64,000 nucleotides of DNA from an uncultured Candidatus Saccharibacteria bacterium (GTDB lineage: Bacteria; Patescibacteriota; Minisyncoccia; Phycocordibacterales; DATDWN01). The number at the start of each line of letters is the position of its first letter. The first letter of the stretch is position 1. Position numbers and translations under genes: made by a program. The stretch is from positions 232,246-296,245 of the forward strand of contig CAYXWL010000001.1 in NCBI GenBank assembly GCA_964468795.1, written 5' to 3'. Positions 30,849-33,719 of this stretch are shown here, one piece after another. The notes under the pieces are model-generated. The model searched no databases and was not told the origin of the DNA. It saw nothing but the letters and a program-made list of their open reading frames with translations.

Positions 30849-31664
30849 TCACTTCTTCCGGGAGGACGCGAGACCGATGCGGTCGTTACGGTAGTCGTCG
30901 TGCCAGCAGTAGACGCCGAGACCCTTGGCATCGAAGAGGCCGACGCGGACGTGGTAGCCGTACGAGTCAAGACTCGATGTCCGGACGTAGATGTTCTCGA
31001 AGAGTCGGATACCACGAACCTCGTAGTAGGTCGTGATGAACCAGCTCATCTCGGCAGCGTTCGGAACCGTTTCCAACTTGGAGAGGAGCTTGTTCTGCTC
31101 TCCCCAGGTCTTCGAGGTTGAGTTCTTGACCGGCGTCTTCCGGATGGCGAGCCACCCGAAGGACGTCTTGTCCTCGCGAGCGAAGTTCTCGTTCTCGTAC
31201 CAACCACCCGACTTGGAGTAGAAGTGGTTGGACTTCACGGCTCGAACTTCGAGCAAGGACATCGCACTCGGAGATGCGGGCATTACGGCGTAGCCGTTTG
31301 CCTTGCACCACTCGAGCACGTCGAGTGACGGAACGGTCTCGGCGAGCTCTGCGAGTTGATCGTCGGTGTAGACCAGACCACGAGCCTTCGCCACTTCCTC
31401 TGGCGTGATAAAATCGACGCCGAGGATGACTTGAGCTTGCGTGTAGTCCGGAACCTTCACCGAGAAACGACGAACGATGTCTCGGACTGCGTCACGAGTG
31501 GCATCCATCGCTTCAGTACCACGGGAGATGAACTCGACACCAGCCTCATATGAACCGAGATACTTCTCGACCATAAGAGGAACCTGTGCCTGAAACATCT
31601 CCACAATGTGCTGAACCTGCTCCGACGTAGCCGGGGCGGTTTCAGATGTGATCTTTGTCATCAC
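30849..31664 (-). CDS. DGR target protein with C-terminal variable region (C-type-lectin-like VR)
   Basis: C-terminus SLDSYGYHVRVGLFDAKGLGVYCWHDDYRNDRIGLASSRKK encoded by VR; start at MTKITSE with AAGGAG SD (ORF-track start 31784 likely leader). GC-rich. Confidence 0.8.
   Translation of the reverse strand: MMTKITSETAPATSEQVQHIVEMFQAQVPLMVEKYLGSYEAGVEFISRGTEAMDATRDAVRDIVRRFSVKVPDYTQAQVILGVDFITPEEVAKARGLVYTDDQLAELAETVPSLDVLEWCKANGYAVMPASPSAMSLLEVRAVKSNHFYSKSGGWYENENFAREDKTSFGWLAIRKTPVKNSTSKTWGEQNKLLSKLETVPNAAEMSWFITTYYEVRGIRLFENIYVRTSSLDSYGYHVRVGLFDAKGLGVYCWHDDYRNDRIGLASSRKK
30858..30971 (-). repeat. DGR variable repeat (VR), 114 nt, ends 6 nt before target stop codon
   Basis: Matches TR at 99 of 114 positions; all 15 mismatches are at TR adenines; shared 3' GC-rich end aucggucucgcguccucccgg (IMH-like). 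Confidence 0.85.
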
Positions 31665-32114
31665 GATCTCCTTCACCTGTAAGTCCGATTCGCTCGGACG
31701 GTTGCGACTTGTCTCTGATTGAGACGAGTTTTTTAAGTCCAGAATAGGACCCAAAAAGCTCGTCTCAAGAAGTGAATCTATCAAAGAACTGACAGTAATA
31801 GTATATCACATATTATAGCCATTTGTCAATGTCTAGAAAATCTCTCAGGTAAGCCATATAATATGGGTATCTTGCTAATGTAGTTTGGGCTACGGCTCAA
31901 GTTCGCGAGATATCTCACCTAGTGAGACGCCAGAGTGCCAGTGGTTTACGGATCATGGCAGAGTGCGATTAAGGATAGAGAGAACTTCTTGCTTGGTTTC
32001 AGTAGAGGTGTTCATAAAGAACTGCTCTCGAATAAAATTCAGAGATAAGAGAATATAGATTCGAAAGAATAGTAACTCTCAAGTCTCGGTGACACAGATG
32101 GAACTAAGCAATAT

Positions 32115-32228
32115 CTTGACTCGAACGGCAACCACGTCAACGTCGGCAACTTCGATGCCAAGGGTCTCAACGTCAACAACTGGAACGACGACAACCGTAA
32201 CGACAACATCGGTCTCGCGTCCTCCCGG
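32115..32228 (+). repeat. DGR template repeat (TR), AAC-rich (encodes ..N G N H V N V G N F .. N V N N W N D D N R N D N I..)
   Basis: cttgactcgaacggcaaccacgtcaacgtcggcaacttcgatgccaagggtctcaacgtcaacaactggaacgacgacaaccgtaacgacaacatcggtctcgcgtcctcccgg aligned to VR. Confidence 0.85.
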
Positions 32229-32277
32229 CAGTCATACCTATCCAAAGAAAATCCTGAGAGATCAGGGTTTTCTTTTT

Positions 32278-32628
32278 TTACCTCTCTTTCGTTGACTTAA
32301 TCCACCCTCCGAGCATTCTGCCAATCTCATCTAAGTTAGCTTCAATGATCACATATTTCTTGGAATCAATTGCTCTGACATCTTTCATGAGACGGATGCA
32401 AATGCGAAGAAAATTTAATCTGACACTTGTTCTTTCAAGAGTTGGTAGTTTTTCTATTTTGCTTTGCTCACTTGCATACAAAATACCCTCAAGTACTTCA
32501 ATGAGAAGACTCTCACACTTTTGCCAAAGTGTGTATCGATCTTGCTTAGGAACAGACAAGCGAAGATTGTAAAATTCTTTATACAAATCGTACGTTTTTC
32601 TAAAAATTGGTATATCTAAGTCATTCAT
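32278..32628 (-). CDS. avd: DGR accessory variability determinant (Avd; four-helix-bundle protein family)
   Basis: 116 aa; C-terminal LDEIGRMLGGWIKS resembles Bordetella phage bAvd VGRILGSWIAR; start codon abuts RT start on opposite strand. Confidence 0.7.
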   Translation of the reverse strand: MNDLDIPIFRKTYDLYKEFYNLRLSVPKQDRYTLWQKCESLLIEVLEGILYASEQSKIEKLPTLERTSVRLNFLRICIRLMKDVRAIDSKKYVIIEANLDEIGRMLGGWIKSTKER

Positions 32629-33719
32629 ATGAAAATTTATAAGAATTTATATTGGTCAATAATTTCTCCTCAAGCACTATTTAAAGCTTGGGAGGTGTTT
32701 AAATCGGATAAGCGAAATAAGATTGATGTTTTGGAGTTTGAAAAACATCTTGAGAAAAATATTTTTGGTTTGTATAGGGATTTGAAAAATAAAAGATATA
32801 AACATGGAGCATATAAAGGATTTTGGATTCACGATCCAAAGATAAGAAGAATTCACAAGGCCACAGTTCGGGACAGAGTACTCCATCACGCAACTTTTTC
32901 TGTGCTTAATAAAATATTTGAACCAACTTTTATTACTGATTCCTATTCCTGTCGTATTAACAAAGGAACTCATAAGGGAGTGGAAGCCATAGCTAATATG
33001 CTTAGAATTGAGTCGAGAAATAATACTAGAACTTGTTATGCTTTGAAATGCGACGTGAGAAAATTCTTTGACTCTATTGATCACCAAGTACTCTTGGACA
33101 TTTTGAAAAGAAAAATCAAAGACACTAAAACGGTTTCTCTTCTTGAGGAGATTGTTAATAGCTACGATTCGTGCGGCACGTTGCGAGAGAGAGAGAGAGA
33201 GAGAGTAAAACGCTGTCGCTTTTTACTATGAATAACAAAGGGGTGCCTATCGGCAACCTGACTTCCCAGATTTTTGCCAATATTTATATGAATGAGTTTG
33301 ATCAATTTGTTAGGCATGAACTTAAAGTAAAATATTATGCAAGATATACAGATGATTTTGTCATTATATCAGAAAGCAAAGAATACCTTGAGGGACTATT
33401 GCCAAAATTGCAAAAATTTTTATCTGAAAAATTAAAACTTGAGCTACATCCAAATAAAATCACTATTCGTAAATACCACGAAGGAATAGATTTTCTAGGT
33501 TACGTCATATTTCCATATTACAAACTACTGAGAGCAAAAACGAAGAGGAGAATACTAAGAAATATACGAAAAAAGATGAGGAGTTTCCAAGAGGGACATC
33601 TCTCTAAAGAAAAACTAAACAGCAGTTTACAGTCTTATCTTGGAGTTTTGTCACATGCTGATACTTATGAGTTAACACAAAATCTCCAAAATCAATTTTG
33701 GTTTTGGATGAAGGAATAA
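32629..33719 (+). CDS. DGR reverse transcriptase, interrupted by a frameshift at a (GA)n tract (two ORFs 32629..33231 and 33171..33719)
   Basis: RT motifs 1-3 in the first ORF (RRIHKATVRDRVLHHA; CDVRKFFDSIDH); motif 4 GVPIGNLTSQIFANIYM (DGR-diagnostic IGNLTSQ) and motif 5 YARYTDDFVI in the second ORF; loss of 2 nt (one GA unit) or gain of 1 nt would fuse the frames. Confidence 0.8.
33185..33205 (+). repeat. (GA)~10 dinucleotide microsatellite inside RT coding sequence at the frameshift point
   Basis: cgagagagagagagagagagagt; encodes RERERER / ARERERE in the two frames. Confidence 0.7.

Follow-up and report, generated by a model that had tools for sequence, protein, structure and literature searches.

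A (GA)n tract splits the reverse transcriptase gene of a Patescibacterial diversity-generating retroelement: probable phase variation of a targeted hypermutator

A stretch of 64,000 nucleotides from an uncultured Candidatus Saccharibacteria bacterium (GCA_964468795.1, contig CAYXWL010000001.1), here called the window, was analyzed at positions 30849-33719, where a diversity-generating retroelement (DGR) is found. The element has a template repeat (TR), a variable repeat (VR) at the 3' end of a target gene, an avd gene, and a gene for a DGR-type reverse transcriptase (RT), the last one divided between two reading frames at a run of ten GA units. We propose that this DGR is probably gated by phase variation of a simple sequence repeat (SSR), the window being the OFF genotype of an element that was ON until recently. 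A previous sequence-only reading had described a complete DGR; the TR, the VR, the Avd and the DGR-type RT stand, while the RT, which it took as intact, is split in two frames at (GA)10G. Three further features go unmentioned in it, namely the divergent orientation of avd, a putative stand-alone TR transcription unit with a structured 5' domain, and the terminator-like hairpin past TR. The features of the locus are the following (IMH, initiation of mutagenic homing; IMH*, its TR counterpart).

30764-30809, minus strand: GC-rich terminator-like hairpin followed by a T-run, 3' of the target gene and common to the convergent recombinase gene, as seen by DNA folding
30849-31661, minus strand: target gene, 270 aa plus stop, called as an open reading frame (ORF) with a ribosome binding site; uncharacterized Patescibacterial protein family
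30858-30971, minus strand: VR, last 38 codons of the target gene, with an IMH-like 21-mer at 30858-30878
31800-31829, minus strand: promoter-like site of the target gene by consensus scan, TTGACA-18-TATACT, 11 of 12 matches, with a TG extension; putative function
31834-31862, plus strand: promoter-like site of the TR RNA, its -10 box TATAAT (31857-31862) aligning with a conserved TAnAAT box of the relatives
31869-32114, plus strand: conserved structured RNA domain, RT-16-like, about 245-250 nt, abutting the 5' end of TR
32115-32228, plus strand: TR, with 11 AAC codons in the VR frame and an IMH*-like 21-mer at 32208-32228
32244-32282, plus strand: terminator-like hairpin of 14 pairs with a U-run, about 16 nt past TR, bidirectional with the 3' end of avd
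32278-32628, minus strand: avd, 116 aa, divergent from RT; Pfam PF22296 (bAvd) 5e-17, NCBIfam NF033474 83.4 bits
32629-33184, plus strand: N-terminal part of RT, motifs 1-3; RVT_1 positions 8-107, 8ub7_A block 3-174
33185-33205, plus strand: (GA)10G tract inside RT; n=10 is out of frame, with a stop at 33229-33231
33206-33719, plus strand: C-terminal part of RT in another frame, motifs 4-7 and thumb; RVT_1 positions 115-205, 8ub7_A block 203-356

TR and VR align without gaps over 114 nt, and at all 15 mismatches the TR base is an adenine, as had been read from the letters alone. The hypergeometric probability of 15 out of 15 mismatches falling on the 31 adenines of TR is 1.4e-10. These adenines are all located at codon positions 1 or 2 of the VR frame, with none at position 3, and the VR indeed corresponds, in frame, to the last 38 codons of the target gene. 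The AAC-rich composition attributed to TR is also real: of its 11 AAC codons, 10 are altered in VR, by changes confined to codon positions 1 or 2. Both repeats share at the 3' end the GC-rich 21-mer ATCGGTCTCGCGTCCTCCCGG, again as previously noticed, and divergence begins directly after it. This IMH-like 21-mer is identical in TR and VR, a condition that occurs in some DGRs (Wu et al. 2018, PMC5758913), and on the VR side there is a weak inverted repeat, GTCCTC...GAGGAC. No second VR was found in the 64-kb window by an adenine-tolerant scan and BLAST of TR.

The locus was compared with 160 related loci (953 kb), being 80 from species-representative genomes (609 kb) and 80 metagenomic (344 kb); loci are coded L and retrieved proteins P, each with a number. 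The target gene likely starts at the ATG at 31661, with AAGGAG 6 nt upstream, rather than at 31664, the boundary given before. Its homologues are 263-268 aa long, and none of 375 has a Pfam domain. For the target protein itself no match was found in Pfam, NCBIfam, PDB sequence search or fold search, so these searches lend no support to the C-type-lectin-like VR suggested by the sequence-only reading. The target gene has a GC content of 57% (72% at third codon positions, GC3, where A accounts for 10%), compared with 33-36% GC and 31% GC3 for avd and RT. The contrast of target and TR with RT repeats in 53 of 57 related loci, with mean values of 52% (target), 53% (TR) and 38% (RT), and the high GC spans the entire target gene, beyond the VR alone.

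The Avd assignment at 32278-32628 was corroborated, as the protein scores above the cut-off of the NCBIfam equivalog NF033474 (DivGenRetAVD; 83.4 against 80 bits) and matches the Pfam bAvd family; a sequence search of Avd against PDB gave no match. The two RT halves are separate ORFs, 32629-33231 and 33171-33719, which are in different frames and meet at (GA)10G. The IGNLTSQ (33249-33269) and YTDD (33345-33356) motifs, already recognized from the sequence, are both present in the downstream frame, and this C-terminal half keeps every motif with no stop over 163 codons. If one GA unit is dropped, a 362-aa RT is obtained, which aligns from end to end with hundreds of Patescibacterial RTs. The best solved relative of this in-frame RT is 8ub7_A, a 328-aa 'Reverse transcriptase' that is presumably the bRT of the Bordetella phage; its E-value is 1.9e-47, while group II intron RTs reach 1e-21. 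Because the frame is broken at (GA)10, the window genotype yields no full-length RT by ordinary translation, the predicted product being cut after motif 3.

The start codons of avd and RT abut on opposite strands (CAT next to ATG). TR is on the RT strand, just past the 3' end of avd, which therefore lies between TR and RT in the opposite orientation. The same avd orientation is found in 74 of the 75 related loci with a detectable avd, and we rejected the idea that avd was flipped by the neighboring serine recombinase, since a divergent avd is the norm of the clade. The 'TR-(avd)-RT' architecture known as B3 represents 90% of the DGRs surveyed in the Candidate Phyla Radiation (CPR) (Wu et al. 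2018, PMC5758913), and the window cassette has this architecture, being a Patescibacterial (CPR) DGR. In the usual CPR B3 order VR and TR are both on the plus strand, VR(+)-TR(+), whereas in the window the target gene is inverted; the inversion is common to L015, the closest relative, and L018, and these three loci depart from the usual order only by it. The TR/VR pair, the Avd and the DGR-type RT identify the element as a DGR, and related loci also carry TR/VR pairs. By itself, it is an ordinary CPR B3 element. Its homologues bear names that point to a host among Patescibacteria / Paceibacterota.

A structured RNA domain precedes TR. Its nucleotide sequence is conserved in 60 related loci (nhmmer), and the conservation ends within a few bases of the TR start. 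RNAalifold predicted 66 base pairs in this domain, 46 of them with compensatory double changes. Its 3' 170 nt align with the full model length of Rfam RF03019 (RT-16) at 26.1 bits (E 0.04-0.08), below the gathering score of 50, and we therefore call it RT-16-like rather than a member of that family. The domain and RT-16 share the stretches ACUUCUUGC, AUAAAAUUCAG and CGGUGAC together with the enclosing helices, while the window element differs from RT-16 in being longer (about 245 nt) and immediately 5' of TR. At the gathering threshold, Rfam gave nothing related to DGRs in 12 relatives, and its only matches in the window were a tmRNA and two tRNAs. A hairpin comparable to the one 3' of TR is present in nearly all of 57 related loci, and we suggest, from conservation and folding, a stand-alone TR transcript formed by the structured 5' domain, TR and a terminator. 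RT-1 to RT-19 are orphan motifs near RT genes, RT-10 being located in the TR-RT spacer of BPP-1, and some of the others have been speculated to be part of DGRs (Weinberg et al. 2017, PMC5737381). An RT-16-like RNA joined to the 5' side of TR gives a genomic context to one of these orphan motifs.

Contigs at least 99.7% identical to the window were fetched from public assemblies by the exact Avd, recombinase and target-protein variant. They come from different samples; the assemblers used, and the coverage of about 3-6x of the informative contigs, were read from contig names. L001 and the window are the same over 9.6 kb except in the VR (30878-30902), the TR base 32157 and the GA tract. The VR of L001 has six substitutions and a 3-nt deletion within that interval, and an additional variable site, 30962, comes from L013, L014 and L197. 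We recognized four VR alleles: A (window and L002), B (L001), C (L013 and L197) and D (L014). All seven variable VR positions across these assemblies are at TR adenines, which is what the sequence-only reading had advised to look for, here at the assembly rather than the read level. The 3-nt deletion sits in an AAC run, and in-frame 3-nt indels opposite AAC were described for CPR DGRs (Wu et al. 2018, PMC5758913). Besides the VR, one TR single-nucleotide polymorphism (SNP) and the GA tract, no other substitution was found across 4.5-9.6 kb of independent assemblies. We conclude, at the level of assemblies, that this DGR is recently active and diversifies its VR at TR-adenine positions.

TR is identical in six other assemblies, and the SNP of L001 is a G>T change at window position 32157, a non-adenine TR position where the G is kept in all VR alleles. 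It is either a TR mutation that followed the last full-length retrohoming event or a sequencing error.

The GA tract is the sole dinucleotide repeat of at least 5 units in the 64-kb window, where homopolymers reach a maximum of 8. Three alleles are found, with n=9 (L007 and L010), n=10 (window, L006 and L197) and n=11 (L001, L002 and L003), and only n=9 leaves the reading frame open. The n=9 product reads ...GTLRERERESKTLSLFTMNNKGVPIGNLTSQ..., in the same frame as intact relatives such as P0001 (...GTLRESKTLSLF...), while the truncated products end in ...RERERVKRCRFLL (n=10) and ...RERERERE (n=11), each followed by a stop. At least two assemblies support every tract length, and they differ in sample and, judging by contig names, in assembler. 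Six of ten contigs end no more than 60 nt from the tract, which would be expected if the assembly graph branched there. Look-ups with C-terminal RT fragments gave no further tract alleles beyond the contigs already found. Tract and VR alleles assort independently, n=10 occurring with A or C and n=11 with A or B, so both sites must have changed more than once while their surroundings stayed invariant. When the in-frame RT was modeled with AlphaFold (pLDDT 78), the residues encoded by the tract (182-202) came out as an unstructured low-confidence loop, and this region is an insertion of about 22 aa relative to 8ub7_A. The 3' flank of the window tract is GTAAAACGCTGTCGCTTTTTAC.

Tracts of this kind recur in the related DGRs and are restricted to two sites. 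With a threshold of at least 6 units, 14 dinucleotide tracts were found in the 953 kb, 6 at the RT loop and 8 at the 5' coding end of avd. Ten are from species-representative loci, at the RT site in L019, L022, L059 and L073, and at the avd site in L060, L064, L069, L079, L082 and L091, where they are at most 45 nt upstream of the Avd core and on the avd strand. The four metagenomic ones are at the RT site in L128 and L175 and at the avd site in L158 and L166. Among the avd-site tracts, those of L060, L079 and L166 are in frame and those of L064, L069, L082, L091 and L158 are out of frame. The tracts recur across RTs that are only 46-62% identical, and the closest intact relative of the window (L015 / P0001) has (GA)4 only.

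A collection of 5.8 billion proteins was also searched with the N-terminal RT ORF. The matches listed include at least 59 short products (less than 275 aa), at least 51 of which end in or just after (RE)n. These fragments come from ENA, JGI, NCBI and Logan, represent both wrong frames, and many of them are on contigs of 24-145 kb. In terms of RT clusters, again among the matches listed, 51 stop at the tract; of the full-length ones, 12 contain (RE)n and 110 lack it. Three further lineages (at least 93% identity) mix tract states, as illustrated by P0010, in frame, and P0173, truncated. The metagenome loci were ranked by tblastn score, which favors intact RTs, so they are unusable for ON:OFF ratios.

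The P0134 lineage has an out-of-frame (GA)8 in ten samples. Its VR is identical in 8 of 9 VR-bearing contigs, L188 having one non-adenine difference; this uniformity is anecdotal, since it was the OFF allele that led to these contigs.

The flanks C(GA)nGTAAA(A)C are frequent at both RT and avd GA tracts (window 33183-33227; L022, L069, L082, L177, L187, L059 and L128). A stretch able to form a hairpin is seen 3' of the tracts, GTAAAA-CGCTGTCGC-TTTTTAC in the window and GCAGCC-TTCG-GCTGC in L059 and L128. Flanks and hairpin could affect slippage or recoding. Two extreme or compound tracts, both in frame, are the (GA)25 of L128 (3081-3130) and, in L175, (GA)8 followed directly by 11 G (258-285).

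SSR contingency loci are well known from the phase-variable mod methyltransferases ('phasevarions') of Haemophilus and Neisseria and from the poly-G genes of Campylobacter. The DGR tracts resemble them in the presence of a repeat inside an ORF, with length alleles that toggle the frame among near-identical genomes, and in the position of the tract, which in avd is close to the 5' end and in RT falls in a tolerant loop, with about one third of the avd-site tracts in frame. Recurrence in orthologues is likewise observed (63 clusters with (RE)n at the site, among the matches listed). The DGR differs in that the gate would control a targeted hypermutator, not a surface structure or a methylase, so that a generator of diversity would be topped by a stochastic switch, and in that the hosts are environmental ultra-small bacteria rather than host-adapted pathogens.

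We suggest the following mechanism. Transcription from about 31869 would yield an RNA with the structured 5' domain, the 114-nt TR and the terminator hairpin, and full-length RT together with Avd would copy TR into cDNA, with random bases incorporated opposite adenines. The cDNA would replace the VR at the 3' end of the target gene, with the shared GC-rich 21-mer as the boundary. The production of RT would be gated by the hypermutable (GA)n, located in a disordered, insertion-tolerant loop between motifs 3 and 4, as n=9 reads through while n=10 and n=11 would truncate the protein ahead of motif 4 and the catalytic YTDD. Replication slippage would alter n, and lineages would go back and forth between diversifying (ON) and being locked (OFF); in other lineages, it would be Avd instead of RT that is toggled by tract slippage. 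Slipped-strand mispairing is the presumable cause of the length changes, OFF alleles would have lost activity, and the 5' RNA domain may take part in the process. The switch could have an adaptive role as bet-hedging.

Some points weigh against this proposal, which was built by comparative genomics. Its support is at the assembly level, not the read level, and at dinucleotide repeats a low-coverage consensus can be off by one unit through PCR stutter. The in-frame n=9 allele is known from just two short, low-coverage contigs, and the 5.8-billion-protein collection has no full-length in-frame RT of at least 90% identity, the best being 76%. For the tract-bearing avd genes, the start codons were placed by inference. 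Out-of-frame alleles exceed the 2:1 expected from random phase, which could also mean decay, or recoding at the level of RNA or ribosome. These counts were taken from two best-120 lists and from loci in order of tblastn score, so they do not amount to an unbiased survey.

Recoding is one alternative, which we consider unlikely. The out-of-frame genotypes would then be normal, low levels of full-length RT being made by slippage of RNA polymerase or ribosome on the GA run, perhaps aided by a hairpin, and the tract would be an attenuator of expression. It would account for the predominance of out-of-frame clusters among the matches listed (51 against 12) and for the flanks and stem-loop-capable stretches shared by many tracts. 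There is also a precedent, since programmed frameshifts were proposed for a phage DGR RT. According to the available text of Benler et al. (2021, PMC8008677), the Quimbyvirus RT, like ours, is not a single ORF, and its VR shows adenine-specific variation between near-identical genomes; it spans three overlapping frames, read as two programmed translational frameshifts, and that text reports neither a repeat tract nor length polymorphism. Here, n=10 and n=11 are both found in one strain, and both wrong frames occur across lineages, so no single programmed shift suffices. The (GA)n has no X XXY YYZ slippery heptamer, the 3' hairpin-capable stretch is weak, long in-frame tracts exist (L019, L022, L059, L073 and L128), and the length polymorphism is seen directly in DNA. 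Recoding and switching at the DNA level are not mutually exclusive.

The GA run could also be a neutral microsatellite in a tolerant loop, the DGR being in the course of becoming a pseudogene by ordinary inactivation, with the VR differences as relics. The disrupted RT of the window and of most tract-bearing relatives in the databases would fit with such decay, as would the short (GA)4 of the closest intact relative and the two other lineages in which ten samples each have the same OFF allele. We find this doubtful. The C-terminal half of RT, free of stops, retains all its motifs, and three tract lengths and four VR alleles are found on a substitution-free background of up to 9.6 kb, indicating a much higher rate of change for tract and VR than for the remaining genome. 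Moreover, in RTs as divergent as those compared here, tracts occur at exactly two sites, in RT or avd, with none elsewhere in the 953 kb, and a restriction to the two genes required for mutagenesis is not expected of neutral microsatellites.

Errors of sequencing or assembly at a low-complexity repeat could in principle produce the length differences and the split RT, given the low coverage of the informative contigs and their frequent breaks at the tract, but this is very improbable, since each length recurs in independent assemblies, the truncation pattern recurs in 51 protein clusters from four sources, and an identical (GA)8 was assembled reproducibly in ten samples of each of two other lineages.

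Phase variation of the tract thus remains the explanation we prefer for this element. Beyond it, and only slightly inclined in its favor, we suggest that across Patescibacteria stochastic tracts in the RT loop or at the avd start would act as a second layer of control over DGR mutagenesis and keep most cells OFF, while rare sublineages would switch ON, diversify the target and lock the resulting variant; flanks and hairpins may tune the slippage, at the DNA or RNA level. Full-text searches, together with a term search of the available text of Roux et al. (2021, PMC8144416), found no report of repeat-mediated DGR switching, Paul et al. 2017 not being covered. In Bacteroides, tight regulation has been shown for some DGRs, in part through transcription (bioRxiv 10.1101/2024.11.15.621889).

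Compared with the BPP-1 DGR (mtd-avd-TR-brt), the window element shares the adenine-specific transfer from TR into the 3' end of the target, an AAC-rich TR, a GC-rich end common to both repeats, an Avd, and an RT with the IGxxxSQ motif. It differs in having avd on the opposite strand, abutting the RT start, and a TR located past the 3' end of avd, with a terminator hairpin within about 16 nt, where BPP-1 has a spacer of about 140 nt into RT. The conserved structured RNA is 5' of TR in the window, while in the Bordetella layout it is the functional spacer that is found, 3' of TR, which suggests that the RNA organization of B3 DGRs departs from the Bordetella paradigm. Identical IMH and IMH* 21-mers and an RT loop insertion that holds the GA tract are further differences. 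Finally, the window element is cellular, not phage-borne: ordinary chromosomal genes, as a tmRNA (43147-43536, plus strand, 112 bits) and a tRNA-Ile with anticodon TAT (39805-39879, minus strand), place the DGR in a cellular genome. With the CPR B3 DGRs (Wu et al. 2018, PMC5758913; DGR clade 2 of Roux et al. 2021, PMC8144416) it shares gene order and orientation and an uncharacterized target family, and it differs from them as published in its repeat tracts in RT or avd and its ON/OFF alleles, which are unmentioned in the available texts of both papers.

If the proposal is correct, a tract switch in RT or avd would be a simple, heritable and reversible restraint on DGRs in a very large branch of uncultured bacteria. 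CPR DGRs scored as 'degenerate', or missed because of a split RT, may then be functional and in the OFF phase, and surveys that require an intact RT would undercount them. The hypothesis can be checked on existing metagenomic reads, by comparing the spectrum of tract lengths with VR diversity. Such a switch would also be a natural design for switchable tools of targeted mutagenesis.

In the neighborhood of the cassette, a large serine recombinase with Resolvase, Recombinase and Zn-ribbon domains is encoded at 29450-30757 (plus strand), 91 nt from the VR end. Homologues with 50-69% identity are present within 2.5-4 kb of RT in eight related loci (L113, L021, L101, L052, L016, L069, L020 and L051), in addition to three weaker ones (30-34%), and the cassette may travel with this recombinase. 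On the other side, a 20-nt exact direct repeat (33867-33886 and 34044-34063) corresponds to the 5' end of a tRNA-Ser(GCT) (tRNA at 33793-33883, minus strand); the second copy was not called as a tRNA by ARAGORN or Rfam. We rejected this repeat as an attachment site of a DGR island, as the copies are just 157 nt apart and lie beyond RT, not bracketing the cassette.

Two stretches of the window, 18800-23000 and 25000-28000, have a GC content of 48-53%, compared with about 38% for the genome, and contain just short ORFs on both strands. They were considered as extra DGR targets and discarded, since the scan and BLAST of TR gave no further VR. Ten of their ORFs were scanned, resulting in a Sigma70_r4 domain at 19545-20093 and a marginal zf-BED at 20559-20945, with no other match and no Rfam match in these stretches, which may be foreign or degraded DNA.

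In the P0124 lineage, L177 and L179 share the RT fragment with L178 and L181 and differ from them upstream of the TR-proximal RNA domain. Some contigs of this lineage have at the target position a gene of 277-281 aa, whose identity as a target is unconfirmed, as no TR/VR pair was detected, while in others this place is taken by an IS200-like Y1 transposase gene, together with a 183-aa ORF that is unrelated. A LOOT RNA (Rfam RF03000, 80 bits) is located just downstream of the DGR RT in L016, a related Parcubacteria locus (positions 5162-5289, minus strand).

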